Positions 8,576 to 56,739 of a DNA stretch of 64,000 nt are shown in pieces. The stretch lies in sequence record PQ604604; one strand, written 5' to 3'. How positions within the stretch are numbered: position 1 is the stretch's first letter; the number at the start of each line of letters is the position of its first letter. Both the position numbers and the translations under genes were made by a program. The notes under the pieces are model-generated. The model saw only the letters and a list, made by a program, of their open reading frames with translations. It searched no databases and had not been told where the DNA came from. Source of the stretch: Escherichia phage ECP_WGS_SA1.

Positions 8576-8586
8576 AGAGGAAGTTA

Positions 8587-9116: not shown

Positions 9117-9145
9117 ACACAATACTTATTTGAGGGTGGATGCGA

Positions 9146-14799: not shown

Positions 14800-14851
14800 C
14801 CTCATGTGGCAATCTGTCAGCAGCCAAGTCATTAAATAAGAGGACACCGAC

Positions 14852-31666: not shown

Positions 31667-32644
31667 TTAAAAATACTCCATATCGGTAATATCACGGAAG
31701 CACTTATACAAGGCAGAGCGCGGCACGTCAACGATGCCAAAGTTAAAGAATTTATATGTCAGATACTTGTTGCGATAATTCTCGCGATTCTCCCAAAGCA
31801 TTTTTCTCTCTGCCATAGGCATTGAACCAGCGGAGACGCGGAAAGGAATCATTTCACCTTTCTCATCAACATATTTTGGATTGACAACCACAAATGATCC
31901 AAGGTATCCTTTTGCAACCAAGCCTTCAGCCTCTTTCGAACGCTTAGTGCGACCCAACTCATCAATGAATGCTTCGTTGTTGTTCTCCATCATCTCAACG
32001 AAGTCTATGATCAGCCCTTCTTCATCGGTCCACGGCTTGTCCTTCCACACATCACGTGACTTTGGCGTCGCGCGGCCATGCTTGTATTTGCCCGTCCAAG
32101 ACTTGCCATACAAGCCTTCATAGCCAAGCTGGTCTGCTTCGATTTGCATCGCCGCGTACTGTTCCATATTTTCGATGTTTCGATATTCGAGAGCGCGAAG
32201 GAATGGGCGTCGACCATGGTTGATGAGGTGCTGATTGACTTCAGCAACTCTAGCGCGATATTTTGCATAACGCTTTTCAAAAGGCAAATCAGGGTCGCTG
32301 AAGTCATCAAACACCCACCATGTAAAGTTAGTGATTGCATCAGTGTTCATGCATGCAGTATAGGCCTGTTGCATGACGTTCTTGTCGTTCGGATTACCGT
32401 CAATTAGCTCTCCATCAAGTCCGTGAATCAATTCACCCAAGAATAGGAACTCTTTTTTGATTTGAATATTGCGCAGCGCCATGCCGGACGTGCCCATTGG
32501 CAAGTTGTCATACGCCATCGCGCGTATGCCATCGACCTTGAAGGATAATCCGCAAGGCAGCGGCACATCTTCGCCGCGCTCGATGATTTGTTTACGCTGG
32601 CAGCCTTTCATTGGTTTTAATGCTTTGATTTCTCCTGCCATCAC
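31667..32644 (-). CDS. ATP-dependent DNA ligase
   Basis: Adenylation motif FKVDGIR (KxDG) and nucleotidyltransferase pattern. Confidence 0.75.
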   Translation of the reverse strand: MMAGEIKALKPMKGCQRKQIIERGEDVPLPCGLSFKVDGIRAMAYDNLPMGTSGMALRNIQIKKEFLFLGELIHGLDGELIDGNPNDKNVMQQAYTACMNTDAITNFTWWVFDDFSDPDLPFEKRYAKYRARVAEVNQHLINHGRRPFLRALEYRNIENMEQYAAMQIEADQLGYEGLYGKSWTGKYKHGRATPKSRDVWKDKPWTDEEGLIIDFVEMMENNNEAFIDELGRTKRSKEAEGLVAKGYLGSFVVVNPKYVDEKGEMIPFRVSAGSMPMAERKMLWENRENYRNKYLTYKFFNFGIVDVPRSALYKCFRDITDMEYF

Positions 32645-33234
32645 TCAAACTCCTTATTCATCACTTGTTCCAGCGCATAGGCGTAAGACTGATCAGTCGA
32701 TTTGATGAACGTTCCGTTGTACATCACACCTTTACGGTCCTTGATGTCTTCATAGGCGGCTTGAGCGCAATCAGACAGTCGAAGTCCATAATCATGCGCT
32801 ACGCCGGAAAGATAATCGACTGCGGCCATTATGGTGACATCAATATCCATACTCTGATTTTTAGCAATGGCGTCACCAAGCCGTCCGAGAGTCTTTGCCA
32901 AGCGAAGGATAAACGAGTGAGGGTGGGCACCTTTGTCAGCGCAACCGCCGCCGTTGATGTCTTCGATTTTTGCACCATTTTGCGCGGCAAGAATAGTTAA
33001 CACAACAAGGCAATCGCCGATGTCATCCTTGATTGCAGCTTGTAAATCACAGATGGCCTGCTCTGTATATCCGATTTCAGTGTCAAAGAACACAAGGTCA
33101 TGTAATTGATCAACGTGGTCGGTCAACTCCCCAAACTCGCTAATAAGCTTCGGGTATTGGTCCTTAAGGTCGCAGCCTTGGATGATGTTACGGTCAGAAG
33201 CCCACTGGCGAATGTTTGCATAAATCTGGTTCAT
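32641..33234 (-). CDS. MazG-like nucleoside triphosphate pyrophosphohydrolase
   Basis: All-alpha NTP-PPase pattern with paired acidic motifs. Confidence 0.6.
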   Translation of the reverse strand: MNQIYANIRQWASDRNIIQGCDLKDQYPKLISEFGELTDHVDQLHDLVFFDTEIGYTEQAICDLQAAIKDDIGDCLVVLTILAAQNGAKIEDINGGGCADKGAHPHSFILRLAKTLGRLGDAIAKNQSMDIDVTIMAAVDYLSGVAHDYGLRLSDCAQAAYEDIKDRKGVMYNGTFIKSTDQSYAYALEQVMNKEFE

Positions 33235-35618: not shown

Positions 35619-37142
35619 TTAATTCATCTTTTTGCCGTCGAGGATGTGATCAGCAAGCATCGACTTCATACTGAGTGAACGCTGAATTTCTTCGTCGATG
35701 GTATCAACACCAATAAAATCAACATACAACACGCTTGATTTGGTGCCGATGCGGTGATTTCGGTCTTCGGATTGCTTGCGCAACTCGTTGTCGTAGTTGC
35801 AAGAATAATAAATTGCCAAATCAGCGGCGGTAAGCGTGATGCCGATGCCTGCCGCTGCAGCGTGGCAAACCAATACCTGTGTTCCACCATTCGCGACTGT
35901 ATTCTTCTGGAAGTCATCAATTAAGAACTCGCGCTGCTCTTTGGATGTTTCACCATTGTATACACCAGTGACCACGCCTTCAGACTCAAGCCAGTCCTTA
36001 ATCTGGTTCATCTCTTCCTTAAATATGGCCCAAACGATGAATTTGCGCTCTGGGTCGTCTTCCAGCACACCTTCCACATAATCTTTAAAGGCCGTGAATC
36101 GTGGGTTGTCTTCCATGTAGACCATCTCATCATACACCTTAACAAAGCCGGATGTCACCTGCTTCATCTTGGTGCGCGACGCGATCATCTCAAACTTGAC
36201 GTTTTCTTCCTCGCCCTTGTATTCCATCAAATAGTTGTACTCATTCTTGAGTTCATCGTAAACATCGCGTTGTTTAGGCGACAACTCGAAGTCAATAAAC
36301 TTGTACACCTTCTCTGGAAGGTCAGGCAAGTATTCCGCTTTTGTCGCACGAAAATAGTGCGGTTCCATCAGCCGGATAAGCTTGTCAAGGTTTTTGTACA
36401 TCGGTCGGCCGAACTGGTCTTTGCGCGGCACTTGCGGAATACCATGGCCATTGCCGCCGATTTTCTTGAGGATGGCTTGCATCTCTGGGTCGTGCGCTTC
36501 AAGTAGCACCGTGAATTCAGAGTTGAAGGCGCGGAAAGATTTGGTGCCGAGCAAGCCTGCTTCAAGGAAGTGATATTGCATGTAAATATCCGCAGGCGAG
36601 CGCGGCAACGGCGTGCCAGAAAGGATTCGACGGGCCTTTGCCAGCCGTCCCAATTCCACAACCTTGATGGAGCGTTTCGCTGTGTTATTCTTGATGCGCG
36701 TTGATTCGTCAATAATCATCAGGCAGCGGTATTTCTTCAAGACCGACTCGATATGTTGATAACCTACTGGTGTGTTGACGGTATCGATGTTGAATGAGAA
36801 GATGCGCGCAGGCACTTCGCCTTCAGGGTAGTGATCAGCAAACATCTTCTCCCAAAGCGCCTTGCCCTTTTTAGTCTTCATCTTGTCGTTGCCGCGCCAG
36901 TAGTGCCCAATCCACTTGATGGAAAGGTGTTCTGGTGCTTCACGACGAATCCAGTTGGAGTGGACACCGTTTGGAGCGATGACGACCATGGCATCGAACG
37001 CGCCAGCGGTGAAGTGCTTTTCAAACTCTGCCAAAGCGGTCCAAGTTTTACCAAGACCCTGTTCCATGAAATAGGCAAAGTATTTTCTGCGGCCTGCTTT
37101 ATCAAGCGCCAGAAGCTGGTGGCGCATCCCTTGTGTTTTCAT
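35619..37142 (-). CDS. SNF2-family DNA helicase
   Basis: Motifs GLGKT (Walker A), IIDESTRIKN (DExx), SGTP. Confidence 0.75.
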   Translation of the reverse strand: MKTQGMRHQLLALDKAGRRKYFAYFMEQGLGKTWTALAEFEKHFTAGAFDAMVVIAPNGVHSNWIRREAPEHLSIKWIGHYWRGNDKMKTKKGKALWEKMFADHYPEGEVPARIFSFNIDTVNTPVGYQHIESVLKKYRCLMIIDESTRIKNNTAKRSIKVVELGRLAKARRILSGTPLPRSPADIYMQYHFLEAGLLGTKSFRAFNSEFTVLLEAHDPEMQAILKKIGGNGHGIPQVPRKDQFGRPMYKNLDKLIRLMEPHYFRATKAEYLPDLPEKVYKFIDFELSPKQRDVYDELKNEYNYLMEYKGEEENVKFEMIASRTKMKQVTSGFVKVYDEMVYMEDNPRFTAFKDYVEGVLEDDPERKFIVWAIFKEEMNQIKDWLESEGVVTGVYNGETSKEQREFLIDDFQKNTVANGGTQVLVCHAAAAGIGITLTAADLAIYYSCNYDNELRKQSEDRNHRIGTKSSVLYVDFIGVDTIDEEIQRSLSMKSMLADHILDGKKMN

Positions 37143-37561
37143 GACAATTCCTCTAAATACTTGATGATGTGATGNNNNNNNNNNNNNNNNNNNNNNNNNN
37201 NNNNNNNNNNNNNNNNNNNNNNNNNNNNNNNNNNNNNNNNNNNNNNNNNNNNNNNNNNNNNNNNNNNNNNNNNNNNNNNNNNNNNNNNNNNNNNNNNNNN
37301 NNNNNNNNNNNNNNNNNNNNNNNNNNNNNNNNNNTGACCTTTCTCAAATGCGCTCTTGAAAGGAAGAGTGGTGGCCCTTGCAGGCCACGATTCAAAGAAC
37401 TTCATTTCAAGCCAAAAGCCGCGCCCTTTCCGGTTGGTGCCGATTACGTCCGGCACACCATCACCCGTCATTGATTCGATTCTTTGAAGCTTCAAGATTG
37501 ATTCTGAATGCTTCTTCAAAGGCACGAATATGTATTTCTGTTCACGGTTATTTGTTGCCAT
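37139..37561 (-). CDS. VRR-NUC-like nuclease (partly N-masked)
   Basis: C-terminal GTNRKGRGFWLEMKF pattern; middle of gene masked. Confidence 0.4.
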   Translation of the reverse strand: MATNNREQKYIFVPLKKHSESILKLQRIESMTGDGVPDVIGTNRKGRGFWLEMKFFESWPARATTLPFKSAFEKGXXXXXXXXXXXXXXXXXXXXXXXXXXXXXXXXXXXXXXXXXXXXXXXXXXXXXXHHIIKYLEELS

Positions 37562-40445
37562 CTGGATACACCTGTTTGATAACGTCGACGATGAACATGT
37601 CAATGCCTTCAAGTTTGCGGCCTTTCATCAGGAAGAATGCGCCGTTCCCGACGTTCTCTGCAATGTATTTCCCGTATTTCTGGAACTTCTCTGGACGAAT
37701 CCTGAAGCGCATTGGCGAGTCGGTCGAATCGTCCTTGCACATAAGGTCAATGAACTGAGTCTCAAGCTTGTTTCCATACTGGTCAAACTCTGCGTAGCGG
37801 CCATCAGCTTGAAGACCCTTTTTAAGTTTGCCGTGCTTTGTATAAATGCCGCGCTCAAGACGTTTACGGATGCGTGTCGCTTCGTTCTCGTCAGCCAGCA
37901 CTTTCTTGGTCAACTTGCCGATCACTATTGCACGCTCGTCATCGCCGACTTCCTTCATCTGGCGTATTGAAGCACCGGAAGTAACGCCAATCAGATATGG
38001 GTCATTATATGCCCAGCCGAACTTTGTGTGCATTTCGGTAAGGTCGCCGTATTTAACTTCAGCATTGGCCAATGCGTCCTTTTGTTTTTGCGTTAAGGTT
38101 CCGGCTTCACGCGCTTCGATGTACTTCATCGCCTTCACCATGCCATATCCTTTTGCGTTCATGATGCCGCCGATTAGCTTTCCGTTAGCGATGGTCCAGT
38201 TCATTGAAGAGTGATCAGGGTCGATTGGCACATAATCCACGCCTTCCTTCGCAAGTTCACGTAATATCGCAATCGTCTGGTCTTCGTCCTTAGCAGCGCG
38301 TAAGCAGGCAGCGGCAAATTCCAACGGGTAGTGTCGCTTAAGCCACAATGTCCAGTAGGTCACGACCGCATAAGACACGGAGTGTGACTTGTTAAAGCCC
38401 CATGACCCGAACGTGGCCATCGCTTGCCAAAGCTTTCTTGCATCCGCTTCCGGTACACCGTTATTTATTGCGCCTGCAACGAAGTCTTCGCCAAGCTTGT
38501 TAAAGTATTCCTCACCCTTACGGCCTGACATTGCCTTACGTACAGCGGATGTTTTCGCCCAGTCAAATGAACCAATCTCTTTAACCACGGCCATGATTTG
38601 CTCTTGGTAAAGGAACACGCCGTAAGTCTCTTTTAAGTACGGCTCAAGCTGCGGCACGTCATACTCAATCGGCGCACGTCCTGCCGCGCGTTCGATGTAT
38701 TTCTGGGCCATACCGGATGACAACGGGCCAGGTCGACCAAGTGCTGTCAGGTTATCGATTTTGTTGAAGTTGTCAACGTGCACAAAGTTGGTTACTGAGC
38801 GTACAGCATCACCTTCAAACTGAAAGATTCCTGACATCTTGTTTTCGTTAAGGATATCAAGGACGCTTTGGTCATCAAGCTTAATTCCGTACAGCGTTTC
38901 AGCATCTATCACGCCAGTATCAGAAATGATGCCGAGGGTGCGAAGTCCCAATGCATCAAGCTTCAAAAGGTTAAGGTATTCACTGTCAGGCTTGTCAATT
39001 TGCGCAATCCCTTCCGCCGTTACCGTACAGTAATCAGAGATTGGGTCATTACACACGATGATTCCCGCTGCGTGAACGCCAGTGTGGGAAGGGTGAATCT
39101 CAAGGTCACCCATGCATCGCGCGGCATCGGGATATTTAGCCACAAACTCTTGGCCCGTGGTCGTTGTTGCAAAGGTATCCTCCAGGCCGTGACCATAACG
39201 GGCGTCACCAGATGAGTATTCAAGCAATGCGTTTTTAATGTTGGCCGTTTCGTGATATCCAATGTTGAACTTCTTACCAACCTGAGCCATTACTGAGTTG
39301 GCCTTAAGCGTGTTTATGTTGCCAAGTTTTGCAACGTTCATTTCGCCGTATTTTTCTTTAAGGTAATCAAACACCATATAGCGTTTGGTATCCTCAAAGT
39401 CAATATCAATATCAGGGAGGTCGGCACGGCTTACGTCGATGAATCGGGCAAATAGCAGCTTATACGGGATTGGGTCAACTTCCGTGATGCCGAGGCAATA
39501 ACAAACCAGTGAACCAGCCGATGAGCCGCGAGCGGGTCCGACGAGCATTTTTGTTTTTGCAAATCGTACAAGGTCCGCTACCACCAGAAAGTATGAGTCG
39601 AAATCTTTCAGCTGAATCTGGTGAATCTCTTCGTTGAATCGGTCCTCATATTCCTGAGTCCATTCTTTGATGTGACCTGCCTTAAGGCGGTACTCCATCC
39701 CCTCACGAGCAAGTTTTACCATGTCACCAGCAAGGTGGATAATCGGCGCCTTGCGCAGCTTCAGGTCAAGTCCCACGATTCCGTTTGCAATGTCAACTGC
39801 ATTGGCCGTTGCTTGATTCAACTCATTTTCGGTCAATATTCCTTTAAGCTGTTTGTGCAAGTCTTCCGCGTCAACGATGCAGTGCGGCTTGACCGTGTCG
39901 CGAACTTCCCAAGCATAAGCAAAGTCAACGTGCTCAGGTGAAGGCATGTGGTTGTATCCAGTTAAAACCAGCGGCCTTCCGTTGCTGCGGTGAGCCAATA
40001 CCTGGCGCTTGGCCAAAAGGAACGATGACGGGTTGACGTCTATATAATCGTAGTCCTCTGGCCGCAGCAACTCCACGGCCCCGCCACAGAATTTAACGAC
40101 GCCATCGAGCGCCCCGAACTCTGCACGGGTCAGTCCGCCGCGCTGTGTTGCAAGCGTGGTCGCGTTGTAAAAGGATTTCAGGTCAAGCGCCAATATCCAA
40201 GCCTTCGGTTTGAATCCCTTTTTCGGGTCCGCATCAGGGTCAATGATTGGAATCTCCATGCCAAACATAGGTTTGATATCATTCTTCTGACATTCCTTTT
40301 CCCAGCGAACGTGACCCCATGTATTGTTATCAACTAATGCCGCGACTTCGCAGCCCAACTCTTTGAGCCGTGCTATAATTTCAGGATGCCGTCCATATAC
40401 TTCTTTGAACGTGTAACCGCTGCGAACTCTCAATTGTGGAAACAT
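37548..40445 (-). CDS. dnaE: DNA polymerase III alpha-subunit-like replicative polymerase (DnaE family)
   Basis: 965 aa with PHP and pol-III core motifs (GSSAGSLVCYCLGITEVDPIPYKLLFARFI, PDIDIDF). Confidence 0.85.
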   Translation of the reverse strand: MFPQLRVRSGYTFKEVYGRHPEIIARLKELGCEVAALVDNNTWGHVRWEKECQKNDIKPMFGMEIPIIDPDADPKKGFKPKAWILALDLKSFYNATTLATQRGGLTRAEFGALDGVVKFCGGAVELLRPEDYDYIDVNPSSFLLAKRQVLAHRSNGRPLVLTGYNHMPSPEHVDFAYAWEVRDTVKPHCIVDAEDLHKQLKGILTENELNQATANAVDIANGIVGLDLKLRKAPIIHLAGDMVKLAREGMEYRLKAGHIKEWTQEYEDRFNEEIHQIQLKDFDSYFLVVADLVRFAKTKMLVGPARGSSAGSLVCYCLGITEVDPIPYKLLFARFIDVSRADLPDIDIDFEDTKRYMVFDYLKEKYGEMNVAKLGNINTLKANSVMAQVGKKFNIGYHETANIKNALLEYSSGDARYGHGLEDTFATTTTGQEFVAKYPDAARCMGDLEIHPSHTGVHAAGIIVCNDPISDYCTVTAEGIAQIDKPDSEYLNLLKLDALGLRTLGIISDTGVIDAETLYGIKLDDQSVLDILNENKMSGIFQFEGDAVRSVTNFVHVDNFNKIDNLTALGRPGPLSSGMAQKYIERAAGRAPIEYDVPQLEPYLKETYGVFLYQEQIMAVVKEIGSFDWAKTSAVRKAMSGRKGEEYFNKLGEDFVAGAINNGVPEADARKLWQAMATFGSWGFNKSHSVSYAVVTYWTLWLKRHYPLEFAAACLRAAKDEDQTIAILRELAKEGVDYVPIDPDHSSMNWTIANGKLIGGIMNAKGYGMVKAMKYIEAREAGTLTQKQKDALANAEVKYGDLTEMHTKFGWAYNDPYLIGVTSGASIRQMKEVGDDERAIVIGKLTKKVLADENEATRIRKRLERGIYTKHGKLKKGLQADGRYAEFDQYGNKLETQFIDLMCKDDSTDSPMRFRIRPEKFQKYGKYIAENVGNGAFFLMKGRKLEGIDMFIVDVIKQVYPDGNK

Positions 40446-40999: not shown

Positions 41000-41026
41000 C
41001 AAAAAGGCCGCCCATTAGGACGGCCA
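41000..41026 (-). terminator. Intrinsic terminator (minus strand) after VOC-like gene
   Basis: GGCCGTCCTAATGGGCGGCC then TTTTT on minus strand. Confidence 0.5.
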
Positions 41027-41041: not shown

Positions 41042-41593
41042 TTATACAGTGTACGGAGTACCGTCTTGATTCAACCGCACAATGAACTTAAGGTCGACAC
41101 CGATGATCTCACGCGTATCAAAGATAACATAGTTGTAACGACGCTGACCAGCAATATTTGGGTTGGTGTGAGAGTCGGTTACGACTTCCTGCGCAACCTG
41201 AATGCCTTCTTCTTTAAAGAACTTGCGCCATTCAGCAAGTTCAGCGGCAGTCACGTGCATGCCAAGATGGCTAACCTGATTGTCATGCGCATCGATGTAT
41301 TCGATGTTTTCGTGAATCCAGTTGCAACCTTTTGTATAGTCAAGAATTTCAAGCTCAAGAGGCTTACCAGCGCCGCCATCGGTGCCGTTGCCAGCCTGAT
41401 AGTTGAAGCGCAAGTCAGCTTCGTTGGTGCAATCGCCGCGCTGACCCTTAAAGACATCAGCTTCAAATACGCGACCAGTAGCAACAACGTGATCATGGAA
41501 CCATTCTGTCAGGCCGATTTTAGCCAGGAAATTCTGTGCGCGCTGAGCACCTGGAATTGACAGGGCGATTTGTTCAATTTTAAAATGTGGCAT
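41042..41593 (-). CDS. VOC/glyoxalase-like protein
   Basis: Beta-alpha-beta pattern HFKIEQIAL and SHLGMHVTAAELAEWRKFFKEEGIQV resembling VOC modules. Confidence 0.4.
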   Translation of the reverse strand: MPHFKIEQIALSIPGAQRAQNFLAKIGLTEWFHDHVVATGRVFEADVFKGQRGDCTNEADLRFNYQAGNGTDGGAGKPLELEILDYTKGCNWIHENIEYIDAHDNQVSHLGMHVTAAELAEWRKFFKEEGIQVAQEVVTDSHTNPNIAGQRRYNYVIFDTREIIGVDLKFIVRLNQDGTPYTV

Positions 41594-41683
41594 TTTGTTT
41601 CCTTAATTAAATATTATTGATTAATTACTGTGTTGCCTTCGNNNNNNNNNNNNNNNNNNNNNNNNNNNNNNNNNNNNNNTGAT

Positions 41684-42367
41684 TTATTTCCCAAATGGAA
41701 TATCAGTACCAGACATAAAGCGCCATGCGCCCGTAATTAAGATATGGCGAATGAAGTCAGCAATTACTTGCGGCTCAGTCTCCAATCCATTCATCAGCGC
41801 CTTTTTCTGGTATTCAGCAGCATACTCAGGAGTCCAGCCGCGAGTCGCGCAAACAGCATCTTCAATCTGTTTGGACATGCCAGTACCACGTAGCTTATTA
41901 GGACTAATAGAAAATACCGTGATCCCGTATTTAGGCGTAAGCTCGTGAGCCATCTGCTTGCTAATCATGAGCGCAGCAGCCTTGGAAGCATTATAACACA
42001 AGCTGGACGTCATAGGAATATGCGCAGCGTTGGAAACGATATTGATCACAAAACCTTTGTTGTCGATAAGACTTTTCAGCGCGGCTTGAGTCGTGTTGAC
42101 GAAAGAGAAGGCGTTGGTGTGCATAACGCGATTGAACTCTTCGTAGTTAACATCTTCAAACCAGTTGTTGGAGTTGACGCCAGCACAGTTGATCAAGCCT
42201 TCTACATCATATNNNNNNNNNNNNNNNNNNNNNNNNNNNNNNNNNNNNNNNNNNNNNNNNNNNNNNNNNNNNNNNNNNNNNNNNNNATGACCGTAAGCGC
42301 CAAGGGTGTCAAAAATAGATTTACCAAGACCGGAATTGGAACCTGTTACAACAATTACTTTTTTCAT
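41684..42367 (-). CDS. Short-chain dehydrogenase/reductase (SDR)
   Basis: TGSNSGLGK cofactor motif, NCAG, catalytic S...YNASK; one N-masked stretch. Confidence 0.7.
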   Translation of the reverse strand: MKKVIVVTGSNSGLGKSIFDTLGAYGHXXXXXXXXXXXXXXXXXXXXXXXXXYDVEGLINCAGVNSNNWFEDVNYEEFNRVMHTNAFSFVNTTQAALKSLIDNKGFVINIVSNAAHIPMTSSLCYNASKAAALMISKQMAHELTPKYGITVFSISPNKLRGTGMSKQIEDAVCATRGWTPEYAAEYQKKALMNGLETEPQVIADFIRHILITGAWRFMSGTDIPFGK

Positions 42368-42432
42368 TTATTTATCCTTTTTGGACTTCGTTTCGATGAG
42401 ATAAATATAACTCATCGAAACGCACAAGTAAA

Positions 42433-43305
42433 CTATTTATTGAAATTAATATTGTGGGTGTTGACGAGACGTTCACACATGGCGCTGTAAACACCATCGT
42501 CGTGTATAGAGTCTTCGTGCTTCAGGCCGCTGATTGCAAAGCGTGTAAGCTTGACAATCTTAAGCTCGAACAGATGCCACATGTGGTAGTCTTCCGGCGT
42601 TTTCAACGTTACGCCATTAGGGAAAAGCACCTGCATAACCTGGCCAACCATCACGGCATTATCGCCATAGACAGCGTTGCGCTCACGGAAGGTTGCTGCC
42701 ATTGCATCAAGAATATCGGCGGCAGTTGCCGGAGATTGTTCAACTTCCACAGCCTTAGTCTCTTCTTGCCCCGTTGCGCTTGGATCAATTGCTAATTGTT
42801 GCACCACTTCACCTGCCTTGCAAAGATTAAACGTAAAAGCGATTTTATTTTGCGCAACGGAATTATAATACAAGGCTTCATCTTGCATCCGCGCGAGTAC
42901 GTCTTGTCGGTCGTCGAATACATTGATGATTCTATAATCGCCGTGCCGCAATGCGTGCGATAGCCATGCAGATTTCATAATAGTTGATGGACGTTTGTCG
43001 CCATAGTCTCTCATCTTGATTGTAAATTCATCAAAAGGAAAAACATTGTCCAGACGTTCAAAAGTCACTTGTCTGTATTTTTCTGGCCTTGCAGTCCAAT
43101 ATTCAACCGCCTCACCGCGAAGAGATGCCGACTCTACTGCTGATGCAATGTGAGGATAGAACTGATCATAACCAATACCGCTGTGATAGTCATCATAGTC
43201 TGACAACGGACCTGCCACCTTGATGCGGTCTAAACGCCAACGGTCATCAAACAGCGTTCCGTCAAGGTCGAATACGTTTAAGATTTCGCTGTTTTTAATG
43301 CTCAT
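42433..43305 (-). CDS. HAD-family 5'-deoxynucleotidase-like domain fused to unknown C-terminal domain
   Basis: HAD motif I FDLDGTL and downstream FDDRQ; C-terminal 130 aa unassigned. Confidence 0.55.
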   Translation of the reverse strand: MSIKNSEILNVFDLDGTLFDDRWRLDRIKVAGPLSDYDDYHSGIGYDQFYPHIASAVESASLRGEAVEYWTARPEKYRQVTFERLDNVFPFDEFTIKMRDYGDKRPSTIMKSAWLSHALRHGDYRIINVFDDRQDVLARMQDEALYYNSVAQNKIAFTFNLCKAGEVVQQLAIDPSATGQEETKAVEVEQSPATAADILDAMAATFRERNAVYGDNAVMVGQVMQVLFPNGVTLKTPEDYHMWHLFELKIVKLTRFAISGLKHEDSIHDDGVYSAMCERLVNTHNINFNK

Positions 43306-44105
43306 CCTTTTGATACTCCATCTTTAGCAACTGGATTGTTGGTGATTGGCATCGCATTCCAAAACTGGATGCGCAACTCTTCTTGCTGTGCCGTGGTATC
43401 CATCCAATCACGATACCACGGGCAATGGGCTTTACCGTGACGAGGAAACGCGCACTTACCCATACCGATGCATTGCGGCTGCAGTAATGGATTCGCCCAC
43501 GGGTGCACCTTGAGGACTTCCGCAACCATTGCGCGGAACACTTCTTGATACTCTCCTTGTGTGCGCGTGCACAAGCGGTTGGAAGCCATCTGTTGCAGCG
43601 TGCGCAAGTTGAACTTTGCCATGATATGCGTTTGCATATTAGAAGGCAACACGGCACGTGCATCTTGAATCTCTGCGCCAGCCGCGCGAAGCTCTTGATA
43701 CAAAGCATCGATAGTCGCCATCGCATCGTCCCANNNNNNNNNNNNNNNNNNNNNNNNNNNNNNNNNNNNNNNNNNNNNNNNNNNNNNNNNNNNNNNNNNN
43801 NNNNNNNNNNNNGGACGAATCGCATCAAACGCAGATGATTCCTGAGCGCGGCTTGTGCGTTCTTGATATGCGCCTGTGCGTGTGCGTACCATCTGATGCG
43901 TCATGTTCTTTGATACATCTGTGATGTCAAATATATAGTCCACAAAGTCAAAAGGCGACTTGATTGTATCAAGCATGTAGCGCCAATGCTCTTGCTTCTC
44001 TGATTCCGTCATCTCAGAGACAGGCTTACCAGTCATGCGCGTGTTCTTTGTTTCCAGCAAAAGGTCAAGTGCATCTTGGGTGTATCGAATTAATTCAACT
44101 TTCAT
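43302..44105 (-). CDS. thyX: Flavin-dependent thymidylate synthase (ThyX) family protein, divergent signature
   Basis: Aligns by eye to ThyX core but the RHR-x7-S-x-RY signature reads RTR...TSRA; Cys-rich C-terminal extension; one N-masked stretch. Confidence 0.6.
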   Translation of the reverse strand: MKVELIRYTQDALDLLLETKNTRMTGKPVSEMTESEKQEHWRYMLDTIKSPFDFVDYIFDITDVSKNMTHQMVRTRTGAYQERTSRAQESSAFDAIRXXXXXXXXXXXXXXXXXXXXXXXXXXXWDDAMATIDALYQELRAAGAEIQDARAVLPSNMQTHIMAKFNLRTLQQMASNRLCTRTQGEYQEVFRAMVAEVLKVHPWANPLLQPQCIGMGKCAFPRHGKAHCPWYRDWMDTTAQQEELRIQFWNAMPITNNPVAKDGVSKG

Positions 44106-44118
44106 TTTAATTATCCTA

Positions 44119-44565
44119 TTAACGGTAATTCACTAGTTGCTGATCACCAGAGAAGGTGCAATGATAAACGAATTGTGCGTTATAAAGCAACTGAAAACTT
44201 TTCTTTGGTTCATTATTAGAACTCATTGATGTAAAGATTTCTGCACCAGAACGGTTTTCACCAATCAGATTGATAAAGCCGCCAGTTGAACGAGGCTGGA
44301 CGAAAGTGAAACGTTGCACCCACGGAGTACGGTTGGCACCTTTCCCTGTGAATCCCTGAATCTGAATATTCAGACCTTCTTGCTCGTTAACACCGATGTA
44401 AGTGGTAATCTTTGCACCAGTCGTTGCTGCGGTCTTACCGTCCATCGCTTCGCAATCGTAAACAGCGATTGAATCGGAAGTACGGATGGCAGCTTCAGTC
44501 GCTTCCATATACATGGTGCCGAGAATAGCAGTCGCGGCAAGAGCGATTCCAGTGATTCGTTTCAT
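44119..44565 (-). CDS. Secreted protein of unknown function
   Basis: Signal-peptide-like N-terminus MKRITGIALAATAILGTMYMEA. Confidence 0.45.
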   Translation of the reverse strand: MKRITGIALAATAILGTMYMEATEAAIRTSDSIAVYDCEAMDGKTAATTGAKITTYIGVNEQEGLNIQIQGFTGKGANRTPWVQRFTFVQPRSTGGFINLIGENRSGAEIFTSMSSNNEPKKSFQLLYNAQFVYHCTFSGDQQLVNYR

Positions 44566-44630
44566 TTTCGTTTCCTCTATGAGTTCTGCTTCAATGATTA
44601 AAGTATACGCCCATTGAAGAAGAAAGCAAA

Positions 44631-45626
44631 TTATTTATTAGCAATATAAGCAAATTTTTGATAGTTATTTGCTTTGATGAGTTTTTCAACTTCAACAAGG
44701 TCATGAGCGACGTCATCAAGCAAAATGTTGCGCCAGGTAGCAAATCGACCGACACTGAACACGTTCAAATCCATAGTCAGCTGCAGGAGTAGGGCGTGTC
44801 GCAAGTCTTTCGGAATGTCGACAATCTTGCCATATTTCTGGTCGACCTTTTCAACTTCTTCAAGAGCGATGTCACTCCATGAAAGGCCAAATGCAGTCAA
44901 CACTTCGTCGACTTCTGCGCGAAGCTTCATGTCACGGTAACGAGTGATGCCGCCGGCAGCTTCAACTGCAGCTTCACTTACGCTGACTAAAGGAATTGTT
45001 TCAATGATAAGCGTGTCACCAGTAATTGATGCGCGGTAAGTTCTGACGGAGTAGTCAGGGAAGTAAATTGTCTGATACAAATCACACTTACGTTTAATCT
45101 TAAAGCGGTAAACGCGAATGTTTGCTTTATCAAATGAGAAATCAAGCTTTTGATCAATCCCAGCCAGCTTCATCATGACTGGCAGCGGCGACGTATTGAT
45201 GATTGGTGTCTCGCTATAGCCACAAAGAGTATCAACCGGAGTATTAAAGAATATGCGGTCACCCAGTTTGTCGACAAGCTGATCATAAAAGTCATCAGGC
45301 GCAATATAACGCGTTGCAGCCTTAAGCTTCATGATTGAACGGCTACCAAACTGATTGGTGACCTTCATGGAATACATATTGGCAAGGTTAATTGGGCAAT
45401 GGTCGTGGTAGTAGTTGCCGCGAAAATACACAGCCTTGTCAACTGTCACGGCCTTAAAGGGGATTCCGGTAATACGGCTTACTTCTTCGCCACGGAAGCG
45501 TAGCAACGCCTTGTGCTGTTGCACCCGTTCCCCTGCTTCGTACACAATAGAGTTCGGGAAGTGACACGCTGTGATAAGTCCTGCTAATCCGCCGCCGATA
45601 ATCATTACAGGTTGTTTCATGTTCAT
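44631..45626 (-). CDS. FAD/NAD(P)-binding oxidoreductase
   Basis: N-terminal dinucleotide-binding motif VMIIGGGLAGL; C-terminal FxxGRxAxW motif like amine-oxidase/UGM-type flavoenzymes. Confidence 0.6.
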   Translation of the reverse strand: MNMKQPVMIIGGGLAGLITACHFPNSIVYEAGERVQQHKALLRFRGEEVSRITGIPFKAVTVDKAVYFRGNYYHDHCPINLANMYSMKVTNQFGSRSIMKLKAATRYIAPDDFYDQLVDKLGDRIFFNTPVDTLCGYSETPIINTSPLPVMMKLAGIDQKLDFSFDKANIRVYRFKIKRKCDLYQTIYFPDYSVRTYRASITGDTLIIETIPLVSVSEAAVEAAGGITRYRDMKLRAEVDEVLTAFGLSWSDIALEEVEKVDQKYGKIVDIPKDLRHALLLQLTMDLNVFSVGRFATWRNILLDDVAHDLVEVEKLIKANNYQKFAYIANK

Positions 45627-45703: not shown

Positions 45704-45732
45704 GAAAAAAAGACCCACAACAAGTGTGGGTC
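45704..45732 (-). terminator. Intrinsic terminator (minus strand) after charged-repeat gene
   Basis: GACCCACACTTGTTGTGGGTC then T7 on minus strand. Confidence 0.6.
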
Positions 45733-45759: not shown

Positions 45760-46599
45760 TTATTCCGCTTGATCACCGTCTTCGGCATCTTCGTTGGATT
45801 CAACATCGACAAACTCGATGTGACCCATCTCTTCCAGCTTGCTCAGGTAGGAGCGAACGGAAGCGCCAAACAGTTGATCTTTAACTTTTTCGCCCAGCTC
45901 ATCGATAGACTGCGCCACGCCAACTTCGCCTTCTTTGATCGCCGCCAGAACGCGTCCACGGGTGGAATGCTCTTGCGGCTGGCTCAGGCCATTGCCAGTG
46001 TAGATGAAGTGGGTTGCTTTTGCACGACGCTGACCGTTCGCCTTTTTAGCAGCCTTACGTTCTGCGATGGCTTTGCGACGTTCTTCAGCTTCTTTCTTAC
46101 GCTGTTCTTTCTGCTTTTCTGCAGCTTCTTTAGCCGCAATCTTAGCAGCTTCACGCTCTGCCTTGCGTTTCGCTTTAGCTTCTTCTTTAGCCTTCTCTTT
46201 TTCGGCCTTCGCTGCAGCACGGGCCTGATCACGCTCTGCTTTCTTAGCAGCAGCTTGTTCAGCTTTCAGGCGCTTGGCTTCTTCTTTAGCCTTTGCCTTT
46301 TCGATTTCTTTTGCTGCTTTAGCGGCTTCACGCTCTGCTTTCTTAGCAGCGGCCTTTTCTGCACGCTCTTTAGCTTTCTTAGCTGCTTCTTCAGCACGCT
46401 TCTGAGCCTTCTCATCAGCAGCCTGCTTGCGTTTCAGCGCAGCTTCTTCACGCTTGGCTTGTTTTTCCTGCTCACGCTTCTGGCGTTTTTCTTCGGCTTC
46501 TTTCTTTTTAGCCAGACGTTTTTCTTCAGCCACGCGACGACGTTCTGCTGCAGCTGCTTGTTTTTCTTCTTTAGATAATACTTTGATTGCTTCGGCCAT
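45760..46599 (-). CDS. Highly charged K/E/A/R-rich repeat protein with C-terminal globular domain
   Basis: About 190 aa of E/K/R/A low-complexity helix-like sequence then an 85-aa non-repetitive tail; AAGGA RBS. Confidence 0.55.
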   Translation of the reverse strand: MAEAIKVLSKEEKQAAAAERRRVAEEKRLAKKKEAEEKRQKREQEKQAKREEAALKRKQAADEKAQKRAEEAAKKAKERAEKAAAKKAEREAAKAAKEIEKAKAKEEAKRLKAEQAAAKKAERDQARAAAKAEKEKAKEEAKAKRKAEREAAKIAAKEAAEKQKEQRKKEAEERRKAIAERKAAKKANGQRRAKATHFIYTGNGLSQPQEHSTRGRVLAAIKEGEVGVAQSIDELGEKVKDQLFGASVRSYLSKLEEMGHIEFVDVESNEDAEDGDQAE

Positions 46600-46758
46600 G
46601 TTCACAGTCCTTAAATAAATTAGTTTATTTTATATTCCCCGTTTGGGATAACTTAATTATGCCTTCAGTCGCCGCCAGTAGCAACTAAAAACTCTGGCGG
46701 CAATGCCACTTTAATTAAACTGATTTTCAGTTTTATTTTTCGTAAATTTACGTCAACA

Positions 46759-54229: not shown

Positions 54230-54583
54230 TTGACCATGGCTCATGTTAAAGACGAAGTTTTATACGGCGCAGAGATTAAGAAGCGNNNNNNNNNNNNNNN
54301 NNNNNNNNNNNNNNNNNNNNNNNNNNNNNNNNNNNNNNNNNNNNNNNNTGGCGTATCCGGCACGAAGGAGATGGGCGTGTTGGTGAAAGACATTCGCGTT
54401 GGGGATGTCATGGTCATCGACCGACAAGCGCGAGTCGTTATCCAGGTGCAACCGAACGATGATGAAGGGTGTGTCCTATTGAAGCTGAAGAAGCTTTCAT
54501 CCAGCCCAGCAAAGGCTATCATCAAGAAGGTCTGGCCCGAAGGATTACGCAAACTCATTCGTCGACCCGTGGAGAATGTGTGA
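54230..54583 (+). CDS. Hypothetical protein (partly N-masked)
   Basis: ORF. Confidence 0.35.
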   Translation: MTMAHVKDEVLYGAEIKKXXXXXXXXXXXXXXXXXXXXXXGVSGTKEMGVLVKDIRVGDVMVIDRQARVVIQVQPNDDEGCVLLKLKKLSSSPAKAIIKKVWPEGLRKLIRRPVENV

Positions 54584-54819
54584 TGGAAGATTATATTAAC
54601 GCCATGTATATTGCATTCTATGTCGTTCAACTTCCCAATGGCGCGGTATTTTATGGCGAGTACACCTTTGACGTTCAATATGACGTTTCAGAGCGTACAG
54701 TGTTAACAAGAGAGTTGATTGCGGACCTTAAGGACGACATCAAACGCGTCGCGCGGCAGCAGTTCAATTTGGATGACACAGTCATCGTTCGTATAACCGG
54801 AATAACAGAGGTGCAGTGA
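54583..54819 (+). CDS. Hypothetical protein
   Basis: TGATG overlap with upstream gene. Confidence 0.4.
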   Translation: MEDYINAMYIAFYVVQLPNGAVFYGEYTFDVQYDVSERTVLTRELIADLKDDIKRVARQQFNLDDTVIVRITGITEVQ

Positions 54820-55154
54820 TGACCCGTGATCAGATACTCGCCGCGCATGAACGTGNNNNNNNNNNNNNNNNNNNNNNNNNNNNNNNNNNNNNNNNNNNNN
54901 NNNNNNNNNNNNNNNNNNNNNNNNNNNNNNNNNNNNNNNNNNNNNNNNNNNNNNNNNNNNNNNNNNNNNNNNNNNNNNNNNNNNNNNNNNNNNNNNNNNN
55001 NNNNNNNNNNNNNNNNNNNNNNNNNNNNNNNNNNNNNNNNNNNNNNNNNNNNNNNNNNNTCTATCGATTCTCTCACCGGACGGGTGATACAAAGATAACA
55101 AGGACACGTGACCAGATAGAGATTGACCTACTCCACTATGTAAAATGAATATCA

Positions 55155-55186
55155 AAAAGGTGAGCTAAATGCTTGCCTTTTCTTTT
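55155..55186 (+). terminator. Intrinsic terminator (cassette copy 1)
   Basis: GGTGAGC-TAAAT-GCTTGCC (G-U pairs) then TTTTCTTTT. Confidence 0.5.
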
Positions 55187-55201
55187 ATCAATACTTATAC
55201 T
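55173..55201 (+). promoter_or_regulatory. Promoter overlapping terminator (cassette copy 1)
   Basis: TTGCCT (downstream terminator stem) - 17 nt - TATACT. Confidence 0.45.
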
Positions 55202-55233
55202 CTTTTCATCAATACTAACAAGCGAGGTGAATT

Positions 55234-55551
55234 ATGATTTACTTAGGCATCGACCAGGAACAAGACGAGCGGTTAGGAAGCGTGTTAAACGTAGAATTAA
55301 ACACAGCTGTACACGTCAAGCCTTGGCCAGAGGCTCATCCCGACGTAGTTGTACCCGTTGCGCCTTGGACGCGTTACGTTGCCATTGACGATGAAGGCCT
55401 TGTGCATTGTTACTCAGAAAAACCGACATACTTCGAAAAGTATCGCCAATGGCTTATGACTGGTTGGGCAAAGGTGCGCTGTTGCGGCGAAGTCGGTCTG
55501 GAAGGCTGGAGCTTCAAGGCTAGTGAATCGTGTGTCGAGGTGCAATTATGA
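55234..55551 (+). CDS. Hypothetical protein
   Basis: GAGGTGA RBS; first gene after terminator-promoter cassette. Confidence 0.5.
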   Translation: MIYLGIDQEQDERLGSVLNVELNTAVHVKPWPEAHPDVVVPVAPWTRYVAIDDEGLVHCYSEKPTYFEKYRQWLMTGWAKVRCCGEVGLEGWSFKASESCVEVQL

Positions 55552-55762
55552 ATGCCGCGCTGGGTAAGCTGTCTTTCAACAAGCGCAATGAGTTGCGCAT
55601 GGTGTCTCGTTTTCAANNNNNNNNNNNNNNNNNNNNNNNNNNNNNNNNNNNNNNNNNNNNNNNNNNNNNNNNNNNNNNNNNNNNNNNNNNNNNNNNNNNN
55701 NNNNNNNAACAATTACNANATGCTGCTTATAANCTGCAGCAATATGCTATGGAGTATGCAAA

Positions 55763-56047
55763 ATGAAGATGCAAAGATGTCCACATTGCTTGTCCACGAT
55801 GCGGCTTACTGCTGAAGAATATTTACATCACGTTAACGTTTGTGAGGCTAATCCTGAAAATTCGACGCGTTACTATTATCACTATCACGCAGAAGCGGAA
55901 GATGGATCAGGCGCAACAGGAATCGTTACCACGAAAGAAATGGTGATCACCAAAAAGGCGTATGAAAGTCTGCTTGATACAATAAAGGAAGTATCTGGAA
56001 AAGAAATAATCTGCATCAAATCTTTGTCTTTCTTACACGAGGTGTAA
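55763..56047 (+). CDS. Zinc-ribbon protein (paralog A)
   Basis: N-terminal RCPHC...HHVNVCEANP; paralog of next gene. Confidence 0.45.
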   Translation: MKMQRCPHCLSTMRLTAEEYLHHVNVCEANPENSTRYYYHYHAEAEDGSGATGIVTTKEMVITKKAYESLLDTIKEVSGKEIICIKSLSFLHEV

Positions 56048-56048
56048 A

Positions 56049-56432
56049 ATGAGAATGAAACGTTGTCCGTATTGCCACGATGTAATGCATCTTCCGCATG
56101 AAGAGTTCGTGCAGCACATGACTAATTGTGATAAGAATCCTAAGAGCGAAAGCCAGCTTGAAGAAAGAATGTTTCTGGTGTCATTCAANNNNNNNNNNNN
56201 NNNNNNNNNNNNNNNNNNNNNNNNNNNNNNNNNNNNNNNNNNNNNNNNNNCATTGAGAAGCGACATTGACTCAATGCAGCTTGCGGCCTGGATTAACGTT
56301 AAGGAAGGCATCACTCCGCACTTTATCGCGCGCATCCAGTCCCAGATTCTACAAATCAAGCGCGAATACAACCGTGACATCACTGAAGTGAAGGTTCTTT
56401 CCATAACGCCGATGAATAAGGAGTTACCGTGA
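56049..56432 (+). CDS. Zinc-ribbon protein (paralog B, partly N-masked)
   Basis: N-terminal RCPYC...QHMTNCDKNP. Confidence 0.45.
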   Translation: MRMKRCPYCHDVMHLPHEEFVQHMTNCDKNPKSESQLEERMFLVSFXXXXXXXXXXXXXXXXXXXXXXLRSDIDSMQLAAWINVKEGITPHFIARIQSQILQIKREYNRDITEVKVLSITPMNKELP

Positions 56433-56689
56433 ACAAGGGTCCGATGACTAAACTGGCCGTTGCCGCGCGGAAGCTTCGACAGGCCGTTAATGGGTCGCGG
56501 CCCGTGGTGTTAACACTCGACGACGCAAAGGCGCTGGTAGAGCTACTCGACGAGCACAACCGACGCAAGAATCTGGAGAACACATTACGCTGGCGCGTCA
56601 CTCCAGCCGGACGGGAGAGCGAGAAGAAAGCTTACTTGCGACGCAAACTAAGGTCAGTCGGCCTTCACGAAGAGGCGAAGAAGATTTGA
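56429..56689 (+). CDS. Hypothetical basic protein
   Basis: ORF followed by intrinsic terminator. Confidence 0.45.
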   Translation: MNKGPMTKLAVAARKLRQAVNGSRPVVLTLDDAKALVELLDEHNRRKNLENTLRWRVTPAGRESEKKAYLRRKLRSVGLHEEAKKI

Positions 56690-56693
56690 TTCA

Positions 56694-56725
56694 AAAAGGT
56701 GAGCTAAATGCTTGCCTTTTTATTT
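56694..56725 (+). terminator. Intrinsic terminator (cassette copy 2)
   Basis: Identical GGTGAGCTAAATGCTTGCC then TTTTTATTT. Confidence 0.5.
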
Positions 56726-56739
56726 GCCTGTATTATACT
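56712..56739 (+). promoter_or_regulatory. Promoter overlapping terminator (cassette copy 2)
   Basis: TTGCCT - 16 nt - TATACT; near-duplicate of 55173 cassette. Confidence 0.45.

Follow-up and report, generated by a model that had tools for sequence, protein, structure and literature searches.

A ThyX and Flavoprotein Gene Cluster beside the DnaE Polymerase of Wifcevirus Phages: A Candidate Module for Thymidine Hypermodification

Introduction

Enzymes of the ThyA fold and the TET/JBP dioxygenases are, to our knowledge, the only ones known so far in a DNA-hypermodification role. The region studied here, a stretch of 64,000 nucleotides of Escherichia phage ECP_WGS_SA1 (sequence record PQ604604; the whole of this stretch is called the window), carries beside its replicative polymerase DnaE an operon of six genes, which code for a flavoprotein, a signal-peptide-like protein, a ThyX-like protein, a HAD phosphatase fused to a DUF6378-type domain, a short-chain dehydrogenase/reductase (SDR) and a VOC-like protein. 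In our judgment there is slightly better than an even chance that this operon is the thymidine (5-substituted deoxyuridine) hypermodification module of the phage, a reading in which we infer both the link to modification and every chemical step.

In phages M6, ViI, SP10 and phiW-14, part of the thymidine carries an adduct which is linked through the C5 methyl group and protects the DNA from endonucleases (Lee et al. 2018, 2021; PMC5889632, PMC8989533). These systems resemble the operon in having a carbon-handle enzyme of the thymidylate-synthase superfamily, with phosphoryl and tailoring enzymes clustered in the replication region. They differ from it in the enzymes employed, that is, a ThyA-fold hydroxymethylase, a P-loop 5-hydroxymethyl-deoxyuridine (5-hmdU) DNA kinase, aGPT-Pplase and pyridoxal-phosphate or radical-SAM enzymes, whereas the operon has a ThyX fold, a flavoprotein and a HAD-DUF6378 fusion.

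A precedent for altered cofactor chemistry in the same superfamily exists in phages RB69 and DLP3, in which flavin-using ThyA homologs make 5-hydroxy-dCMP for arabinosylated cytosine (Lee et al. 2026, PMC13326640). There, a thymidylate-synthase-superfamily enzyme with changed cofactor chemistry is combined with a glycosylation handle and clustered sugar-tailoring genes. The nearest system by gene content is that of Pbunavirus, in which modified thymidine has been demonstrated (PMC12191111). Pbunavirus has the flavoprotein, ThyX-like and HAD triad in common with Wifcevirus; the SDR, VOC and secreted-protein genes belong, of these two genera, to Wifcevirus only.

Results

Distribution and Composition of the Module

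The source phage is a Wifcevirus. The window is 97.4% identical over its full length to Escherichia phage vB_EcoM_WFH (hereafter WFH), and 28 Wifcevirus genomes match it at 93-97%. The six open reading frames (ORFs; 41042-45626) adjoin the exonuclease/DnaE genes (table 1). An earlier note, made from the sequence alone, had described six co-oriented genes beside the replicative polymerase, and all six ORFs are indeed there, on the minus strand. Runs of N within the cluster (41642-41679, 42213-42286 inside the SDR gene and 43734-43812 inside the ThyX gene) mask part of the sequence, which was filled from WFH.

The flavoprotein was found in 361 phage records. In every genome opened, a ThyX and a HAD gene were nearby, mostly beside the exonuclease/DnaE genes. 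The numbers of records with the flavoprotein and with ThyX run in parallel, being, respectively, 292 and 292 in Pseudomonas phages, 26 and 26 in Escherichia phages, 9 and 9 in Serratia phages, 46 and 45 in Gordonia phages, 32 and 32 in Mycobacterium phages, and 9 and 8 in Streptomyces phages. For the module as a whole the count is at least 361 + 126 sequenced phages and some 2000 proteins in the databases, among them those of Mycobacterium, Gordonia, Microbacterium and Streptomyces phages.

The triad lies together beside the DnaE/exonuclease genes in Wifcevirus, in Pbunavirus (E217, F8 and 14-1), in the podophages Ss1 of Cronobacter and VA-RY-3 of Vibrio, and in three metagenomic contigs. A 206-kb Rhizobium phage has the three genes in a stretch of about 7 kb, and no DnaE was seen in the part sampled. 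The closest relatives with the flavoprotein, a histidine-less ThyX and HAD-DUF6378 are the Pbunavirus phages, where the genes follow the same order beside DnaE, and the same module recurs beside DnaE in many phage groups.

In actinophages (Microbacterium, Gordonia and Mycobacterium), a parallel set of flavoprotein, HAD and SDR genes is located beside DnaE, with VOC and DUF6378 genes confirmed in RikSengupta only. In detail, gp55-59 of Microbacterium phage RikSengupta (3779-7094 of the compared stretch) comprise a Rossmann flavoprotein (phrog_8720), a HAD, an SDR, a VOC and a DUF6378 protein, and DnaE follows. The VOC protein of this phage is 34% identical to that of the window, and a ThyX-like gene is found 8 kb away. 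A glycosyltransferase gene stands just after its DnaE. Gordonia phage Gibbin (gp71-77, 2632-6684) and Mycobacterium phage Gumball (gp63-67, 1790-4872) have a similar set with a SAM-methyltransferase in addition, and in Gibbin a MazG-like gene adjoins DnaE. In Gordonia phage Madi the flavoprotein, a methyltransferase, DnaE and ThyX are present; HAD and SDR genes were not seen in the sampled stretch.

The cluster is a core triad (flavoprotein, ThyX-like protein and HAD fusion) with an SDR/VOC accessory pair, and not a set of six equivalent parts.

The ThyX-Like Protein

Pfam Thy1 (PF02511) covers residues 5-203 of the ThyX-like protein at 96.9 bits against a cut-off of 24.8, and phmmer matches the protein to the ThyX structures of T. 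maritima and M. tuberculosis. The score on the NCBIfam equivalog model TIGR02170 is 81.8 bits, under the curated cut-off of 87.9. Canonical ThyX (T. maritima TM0449, PDB 1O26 and related) and the cluster version have the same fold, the same Pfam family and the same dUMP contacts (Q75/R78/R80/R90/R147/R165/R174). The cluster version differs in reading RTR for RHR, in the replacement of His53, His59, Tyr91 and His178, in a Thr at the place of Ser88, in a C-terminal extension with four cysteines, in its obligate flavoprotein neighbor and in falling below the TIGR02170 cut-off.

The sites were mapped over twelve sequences in T. maritima numbering. The window protein carries the replacements H53I, H59F, H79T, S83A, S88T, Y91A and H178R, and keeps Q75, R78, R80, R90, R147, N163, R165, R174, Q180 and E182; it reads HQMVRTRTGAYQERTSRA where T. 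maritima ThyX reads RQWFRHRIASYNELSGRY. The canonical motif RHR-x7-S-x-R-Y is thus absent and RTR...T-S-R-A stands in its place. This alteration, pointed out in the earlier note together with a Cys-rich C-terminal extension, is read directly in the translation of the window, as is the extension, and both are near-invariant in about 30 homologs. The dUMP-binding Q75, R78, R80, R90, R147 and R174 are invariant in the alignments of ThyX-like proteins. In the segment H-x-[ST]-P-x-E-H, His53 and His59 are both replaced, the clade members in the site table showing I/L and F/A/T. Position 79 is T, N, Q or S in eight clade members and Q in RikSengupta, the ninth lineage. Structural work on ThyX assigns the binding of dUMP and of part of the FAD to the retained residues, the stacking on the folate pterin to His53 and a contact with the flavin to the His of RHR. 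As aligned, the enzyme has lost every conserved histidine and the Tyr91 of the flavin/folate half-site, with the dUMP-contacting arginines kept.

All nine flavoprotein-bearing lineages examined, which infect Proteobacteria and Actinobacteria, have a ThyX without His53, His59, His79, Tyr91 and His178, Tyr91 being replaced in each of the nine. They are WFH, E217, Ss1, VA-RY-3, TM2_3B, Gumball, Madi, the Dryad/PHTowN group and RikSengupta; in the Dryad/PHTowN group, Dryad supplied the ThyX motif and its relative PHTowN the flavoprotein match. The canonical form occurs in T. maritima and in Clostridium and Bacillus phages, and the sampled flanks of both phages are without a flavoprotein partner. 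The ThyX of Sulfolobus virus STSV1 is intermediate. Judged from the alignments, the changes in ThyX mark a clade.

The C-terminal extension, present in the Wifcevirus, Pbunavirus and mycobacteriophage versions, contains four near-invariant cysteines (C179, C212, C218 and C228), situated in and after the last ThyX helix. Cysteines aligning with these four are found in the ThyX of mycobacteriophage Gumball, with an overall identity of 29%. Conservation reaching so far suggests a metal or Fe-S site in the extension, and the four cysteines, by their pattern in the alignment, may be an Fe-S or a Zn site. The set was not found in the ThyX versions of the podophages, the Rhizobium phage and the Microbacterium phage.

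The Flavoprotein

The flavoprotein has an N-terminal GxGxxG, a C-terminal GRFATWRNILLDD motif and many invariant Arg/Lys residues. No match was obtained in Pfam at E <= 0.1, in NCBIfam at E <= 1 or among PDB sequences, so that by the Pfam and NCBIfam models it is not a member of the UDP-galactopyranose mutase (UGM) family. Its AlphaFold model is confident (pLDDT 85.8, pTM 0.83). The overall fold and the N-terminal GxGxxG are shared with UGM and protoporphyrinogen oxidase (PPOX) of the two-dinucleotide-binding-domain superfamily. The C-terminal GR-x-x-T-[WY]-R resembles what we take to be the C-terminal FAD motif of UGM (E. coli Glf). The protein, an amine-oxidase/UGM-type flavoprotein in the earlier note, is UGM-, PPOX- and amine-oxidase-like; it is a compact member of the UGM/PPOX superfamily, not a demonstrable UGM.

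Both UGM and PPOX use their flavin on a carbon adjacent to a heteroatom or ring: in UGM a flavin-sugar iminium arises, and in PPOX methylene bridges are oxidized.

Between the actinophage family phrog_8720 and phrog_4828, only the Rossmann motif aligns significantly (probability 47-61%), and homology is not proven. A C-terminal GR[FY]xxW motif common to the two families is at most suggestive.

The HAD-DUF6378 Fusion

The N-terminal part of the fusion is a HAD phosphatase of the polynucleotide kinase/phosphatase (PNKP) type. The motifs D13-L-D15-G-T17, T71, K111 and D131/D132 are invariant or nearly so in 36 homologs. The nearest structures are the phosphatase domains of T4 Pnkp and Pnkp1, and the PHROGs family is named polynucleotide kinase/phosphorylase. 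The deoxynucleotide 5'-monophosphatase proposed previously gives way to a domain nearest the PNKP 3'-phosphatases, by the HAD_PNKP model and by structural neighbors. The fused domain, which had been described as unassigned and of 130 residues, does exist; it is probably of DUF6378 type and consists of the C-terminal 100 residues, in which the AF2 model shows four helices over residues 194-279.

The assignment to PF19905 (DUF6378) comes from 12 of the 14 homologous domains (best E 2.9e-4), the window copy itself being unmatched and the E217 copy reaching 14.3 bits where the cut-off is 27.1. Even homologs that, over the whole protein, are just 51-59% identical to the window fusion have this domain nearly unaltered. 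Microbacterium phage RikSengupta encodes it on its own, next to the VOC gene, with 57% identity across 49 residues. A profile of DUF6378 searched against the PDB gave spurious repeat-protein matches only, and PDB sequence searches with the flavoprotein, the HAD fusion and the VOC protein returned nothing useful. No P-loop or kinase family was matched by the fusion in Pfam, PHROGs or NCBIfam.

In Cronobacter phage Ss1 (orf32, 8561-9241 of the compared stretch) and in VA-RY-3-type podophages, the HAD beside ThyX is fused to DUF3310. The latter is a Pfam domain which also forms the C-terminal domain of the T7 gp1.7 nucleotide kinase (gene 1.7, 267-857 of the compared stretch). These DUF3310 fusions hint at a nucleotide-binding or kinase-like role of the four-helix partner domains of the HAD. 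Compared with T4 Pnkp and T7 gp1.7, the fusion of the cluster is without a P-loop kinase domain, and its partner is DUF6378, with no detectable similarity to DUF3310. The phosphatase may act on a nucleic-acid end, on a nucleotide or on a sugar phosphate. Kinship of DUF6378 with DUF3310 or with Nmad1-type N-terminal domains was considered and is not claimed; motifs align by eye, with hhalign probabilities of 0.1-2.5%.

In one relative, the metagenomic contig SRR16287785_59849 (1599-2123 and 3468-5171), the flavoprotein gene is directly followed by a second HAD_PNKP gene, which stands alone, and the HAD fusion is enlarged to 567 aa. Some lineages have thus duplicated or enlarged their phosphatase component.

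The SDR, VOC and Signal-Peptide-Like Proteins

The SDR that the earlier note recognized is a classical one, as seen from its adh_short match (table 1) and from its intact motifs (TGxxxGxG at 8-15, NxAG at 60, S112 and Y125-x3-K129). The VOC-like fold, also proposed there, is marginal for the window protein alone, which scores 13.5 bits on Glyoxalase_4 against a cut-off of 27; it is the clear homologs, at 36-42 bits, that pass. The VOC family is very small and phage-centered: a search of 1.84 billion representative proteins yielded just 289 relatives. From the alignment consensus, Gln and not His appears to occupy the first canonical metal-ligand position. Several VOC homologs are fused N-terminally to PF07659, the "Nucleotide modification associated domain 1", and these fusions favor a link of the cluster with nucleotide modification.

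SDR and VOC genes are paired in relatives infecting Serratia, Xanthomonas and Pantoea and in Microbacterium phages, and VOC is also found in an Aeromonas relative. In Pbunavirus the SDR, VOC and signal-peptide-like genes are absent from the genomes and from the homolog searches. By their distribution, the SDR and VOC proteins form a conserved accessory pair, and they are classed here as putative tailoring enzymes.

The signal-peptide-like protein was found by tblastn in 28 Wifcevirus records only and has no match in Pfam, PHROGs or NCBIfam. At the position of its gene, Pbunavirus holds five unrelated small ORFs. Its earlier description as a secreted protein has the signal-peptide-like N-terminus as sole basis, and its place in the cluster is that of a Wifcevirus-specific insert outside the conserved module. 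It is probably not part of the pathway.

Thymidine Adducts and Restriction Resistance

Two experimental reports bear on the cluster, those of Humolli et al. and Yee et al. 2025. The virion DNA of the Pbunavirus phages F8 and 14-1 contains thymidine derivatives of 362 and 390 Da, which replace about a quarter of T and occur at TG (Yee et al. 2025 preprint, PMC12191111). F8 DNA withstands enzymes with TG in their site, the family is stated by the authors to be without homologs of known hypermodification genes, and the preprint assigns no genes (PMC12191111). By mass arithmetic, 390.3 Da corresponds to 5-hydroxymethyl-dU plus a pentose minus H2O, and 362.3 Da to 5-hydroxymethyl-dU plus a tetritol minus H2O, the isomeric, C-C linked 5-(tetrahydroxypentyl)-dU having the same mass. 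Adducts of these masses call for a one-carbon handle on C5 together with sugar and phosphate handling, and the enzyme types of the module match this chemistry.

The phages F8 and 14-1 are 97% identical in the flavoprotein, 94% in ThyX, 80% in the HAD fusion, 78-82% in the small ORFs and 57% in orf70. The orf70 product (13894-15090 in F8 and 13997-15301 in 14-1, of the compared stretches) is a protein of about 400 aa with CxxC motifs; its gene adjoins the primase gene, and it is the most divergent protein of the replication region. For orf70, the HAD fusion and the small ORFs, the most divergent genes between the two phages, no informative family matches were obtained. By this divergence, orf70, the HAD fusion and three small ORFs are candidate determinants of the adduct type in F8 and 14-1.

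Wifcevirus phages resist all tested restriction-modification systems save EcoP1_I, and the BASEL study left the mechanism unexplained (PMC11990801). They are sensitive to EcoP1_I and resistant to EcoCFT_II, for which similar site numbers were reported (PMC11990801). The window contains 14 EcoRI, 6 EcoRV and 67 EcoP1I sites. EcoRI and EcoRV, the sites of which are without TG, are reportedly among the systems tested on Wifcevirus, and the presence of their sites in the window means that site avoidance alone does not explain the resistance. The recognition site of EcoP1_I taken for this count is AGACC. A context-specific modification of thymine could explain the asymmetry between EcoP1_I and EcoCFT_II.

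Several short palindromes and methylation sites are much rarer in the window than expected, namely (found vs. expected) BamHI (0 vs. 12.8), XbaI (1 vs. 17), GATC (103 vs. 239) and CCWGG (63 vs. 177); HindIII, SalI, PstI and FspI sites are over-represented. The under-represented sites look like site avoidance alongside any DNA modification.

Discussion

The Proposed Thymidine-Hypermodification Pathway

The undescribed nucleotide- or DNA-modification pathway put forward in the earlier note emerges as the best-supported reading, with indirect support, namely the triad held in common with Pbunavirus, whose thymidine is modified, and the restriction resistance of Wifcevirus. The operon is the best candidate for the sugar-thymine pathway of Pbunavirus and may explain the resistance of Wifcevirus. 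A search of the literature found no paper assigning a function to this cluster, to phrog_4828 or to DUF6378.

In the pathway as we envisage it, the ThyX-like enzyme and the flavoprotein would use flavin chemistry to equip C5 of uracil or thymine with a one-carbon handle, or to activate one there, in the form of a 5-hydroxymethyl or an exocyclic methylene group. Either the ThyX-like enzyme, seemingly no longer built for the folate/NADPH redox cycle, would halt at or create the exocyclic-methylene/hydroxymethyl stage, or the flavoprotein would dehydrogenate the thymine methyl or activate the sugar. A sugar or sugar-phosphate unit would then be joined to the C5 carbon handle. The HAD/DUF6378 protein would handle the phosphate steps through phosphatase and nucleotide-binding or kinase-like functions, and in Wifcevirus-type phages the SDR and VOC proteins would re-tailor the sugar by keto-reduction or isomerization. 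The expected product would be a thymidine bearing a sugar or alditol, like the 362- and 390-Da nucleosides of Pbunavirus, which would shield the genome from restriction enzymes.

The complete genome of the related phage Bas99 offers no other candidates for such a route. In its annotation, and in Pfam searches of 10 larger hypothetical proteins, no ThyA homolog, glycosyltransferase, TET/JBP dioxygenase, methyltransferase or P-loop kinase was found; the components of the M6-type route, that is, a ThyA-fold dUMP hydroxymethylase, the P-loop 5-hmdU DNA kinase (5-HMUDK), aGPT-Pplase, pyridoxal-phosphate or radical-SAM enzymes and a glycosyltransferase, are all missing from the annotation. By the same searches, the enzymes of the cluster are the sole small-molecule enzymes that the phage encodes. 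A more general proposal, which we hold as a tentative one of a little under even probability, is that a third, flavin-based route to thymidine hypermodification exists, independent of ThyA/5-hmdU kinase and of TET/JBP. In it, a histidine-less, possibly metal-cluster ThyX and the flavoprotein would generate an electrophilic C5-methylene or 5-hydroxymethyl group and couple it with a sugar or alditol, the HAD/DUF6378 protein and the optional SDR and VOC proteins would act in tailoring, and the module would travel with DnaE-type replicases in phages of Proteobacteria and Actinobacteria.

Several points weigh against the hypermodification reading. The adduct is known chemically from Pbunavirus, and one in Wifcevirus, if there is any, may differ. 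With its dUMP arginines intact, and as Bas99 has no further annotated thymidylate synthase, the ThyX-like protein may simply make dTMP. In Pbunavirus about 25% of T is modified, at TG, which implies a sequence-specific step at the level of DNA, and no glycosyltransferase or specificity factor is recognizable here. The difference between the adducts of F8 and 14-1, whose flavoproteins and ThyX proteins are near-identical, must come from elsewhere. F8 DNA is cleaved at EcoRI sites (PMC12191111). Since the EcoRI and EcoRV sites are without TG, a TG-specific modification would not explain the resistance of Wifcevirus, which would call for a different context or another mechanism. The HAD domain resembles nucleic-acid end-healing phosphatases in a phage which has a DNA ligase. 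Finally, homology between phrog_4828 and phrog_8720, between DUF6378 and Nmad1 and between DUF6378 and DUF3310 is without statistical support.

Alternative Explanations

Some of these points would be met by a role in nucleotide supply and repair, in which the histidine-less ThyX would be a thymidylate synthase, the flavoprotein its reductase or helper (a two-component ThyX) and HAD-DUF6378 an end-healing enzyme working with the ligase; the SDR and VOC proteins would be unrelated, and the resistance would be due to some other anti-restriction protein. Such an enzyme would be expected to keep Q75, R78, R80, R90, R147, R165 and R174 and to score on Thy1 as this one does, and in Bas99 it would be the one annotated thymidylate synthase. 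The earlier note had named a thymidylate/folate salvage set as its alternative, to which the kept dUMP arginines and the lack of a second annotated thymidylate synthase in Bas99 leave some probability. The strict co-occurrence of ThyX and flavoprotein fits a partner protein equally well, and the likeness of the HAD to the T4 Pnkp/Pnkp1 phosphatase domains, its name in PHROGs and the nearby DNA ligase gene fit end healing. However, the loss of His53, His79, Tyr91 and His178 in every member is hard to square with unchanged chemistry, the ThyX-like score lies under the equivalog cut-off and the phosphatase domain is unaccompanied by a kinase P-loop. This explanation also gives no role to the conserved SDR and VOC pair or to the VOC-PF07659 fusions, and it leaves the Pbunavirus adducts and the Wifcevirus resistance without candidate genes; we consider it rather unlikely, though a serious contender.

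A replacement of the base at the level of the nucleotide pool, analogous to that of SPO1- and phiW-14-type phages, appears improbable. The ThyX-like enzyme would here make 5-hydroxymethyl-dUMP or another 5-substituted dUMP, DUF6378 would act as or recruit a kinase, the HAD and MazG proteins would destroy competing dTMP/dTTP or dUMP, and the sugar would be added by proteins encoded elsewhere. The fusion of the Ss1 HAD to DUF3310, a domain of the T7 gp1.7 nucleotide kinase, the MazG-like genes accompanying the module and the weak matches of actinophage HADs to NT5C (deoxypyrimidine 5'-nucleotidase) agree with it. Yet DUF6378 has no detectable similarity to DUF3310, the universally conserved flavoprotein is left without a role, and about three quarters of the T of Pbunavirus is canonical, with the adduct confined to TG (PMC12191111). 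Still less credible, and to be given very little weight, is a function in sugar or envelope metabolism, by which a UGM-like mutase, the SDR, the VOC, a sugar-phosphate phosphatase and the secreted protein would remodel the O-antigen or make a nucleotide sugar for superinfection exclusion. The annotators of phage Mansfield did name the flavoprotein UDP-galactopyranose mutase, the O-antigen is the receptor of these phages and the signal-peptide-like gene is inside the operon; but the secreted protein is confined to Wifcevirus, and the module, which includes no glycosyltransferase or flippase, always lies in the replication region with ThyX and DnaE and is conserved across hosts with wholly different envelopes, Actinobacteria included.

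A folate/pterin or flavin cofactor pathway, with the SDR as a pteridine reductase for instance, was rejected, given that GTP cyclohydrolase and other genes of the pathway are absent from Bas99 and that ThyX yields no dihydrofolate.

Implications

The hypermodification reading supplies concrete candidate genes for the Pbunavirus thymidine adducts, which were reported in 2025 without biosynthetic genes. Phages of this genus belong to those most used in therapy against Pseudomonas. If the reading is true, DNA hypermodification has recruited a ThyX fold along with a dedicated flavoprotein, and many phage genomes thought to be unmodified, those of therapeutic Pbunavirus and of actinophages included, may be hypermodified. 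Consequences would follow for the host range in phage therapy, for the sensitivity to END-type nucleases, for sequencing and cloning, and for new DNA-labeling enzymes. If supply and repair were instead the function, a flavoprotein-dependent, two-component ThyX would still be a new form of thymidylate synthesis.

Layout of the Locus and Neighboring Genes

The two terminator-like hairpins of table 1 coincide with terminators annotated in phages WFH and Mansfield. The one 5' of the operon terminates the preceding Lys/Glu/Ala-rich gene and the one 3' of the VOC gene sets the operon apart from the exonuclease/DnaE genes. Since the hairpins bracket exactly the six genes, the operon is a separate transcription unit between the Lys/Glu/Ala-rich gene and the exonuclease/DnaE genes.

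Table 1. Positions in the Window of the Cluster, Its Domains, the Flanking Hairpins and Neighboring Genes
Feature	Position	Strand	Details
VOC-like protein	41042-41593	minus	183 aa; Glyoxalase_4 13.5 bits, marginal
SDR	41684-42367	minus	227 aa; adh_short 102 bits, E 3.4e-29
HAD fusion	42433-43305	minus	290 aa; HAD_PNKP 33.5 bits; phrog_4889
C-terminal four-helix domain of the fusion (about aa 191-290)	42436-42735	minus	DUF6378-type, extremely conserved
HAD phosphatase domain of the fusion (about aa 1-175)	42781-43305	minus	PNKP 3'-phosphatase type
ThyX-like protein	43302-44105	minus	267 aa; Thy1 96.9 bits
Signal-peptide-like protein	44119-44565	minus	148 aa; no family match
Flavoprotein	44631-45626	minus	331 aa; phrog_4828 alone, E 2.5e-149, "unknown function"
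Terminator-like hairpin 5' of the operon	45712-45732	minus	8-bp stem, 5 G-C pairs, then T run
Terminator-like hairpin directly 3' of the VOC gene	41006-41025	minus	8-bp stem, 7 G-C pairs, then T run
MazG-like nucleotide pyrophosphohydrolase	32641-33234	minus	outside the cluster; Pfam MazG weak, E 0.023
157-aa protein	37139-37612		partly masked
DnaE	37548-40445
Lys/Glu/Ala-rich protein	45760-46605	minus	281 aa; no family match

The window holds 28 runs of N, the longest of 594 bases. Apart from those within the cluster, they include 1-24, 70-328, 29692-29803, 37175-37334, several in 54286-57548, 59237-59346 and 63287-63486, so several ORFs of the window are read with stretches of X or may be hidden.

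The homolog of the MazG-like protein is annotated as such in Bas99 and Mansfield, and the protein may be a nucleotide-pool enzyme associated with the cluster. The gene for the 157-aa protein overlaps the 3' end of the DnaE gene by about 65 bases, and its annotation in relatives varies between "DNA helicase" and hypothetical. The protein encoded directly upstream of the operon consists mostly of Lys/Glu/Ala repeats (AKKAEREAAK...) with a short globular C-terminus, and a gene of similar size occupies its position in Pbunavirus and in metagenomic contigs.

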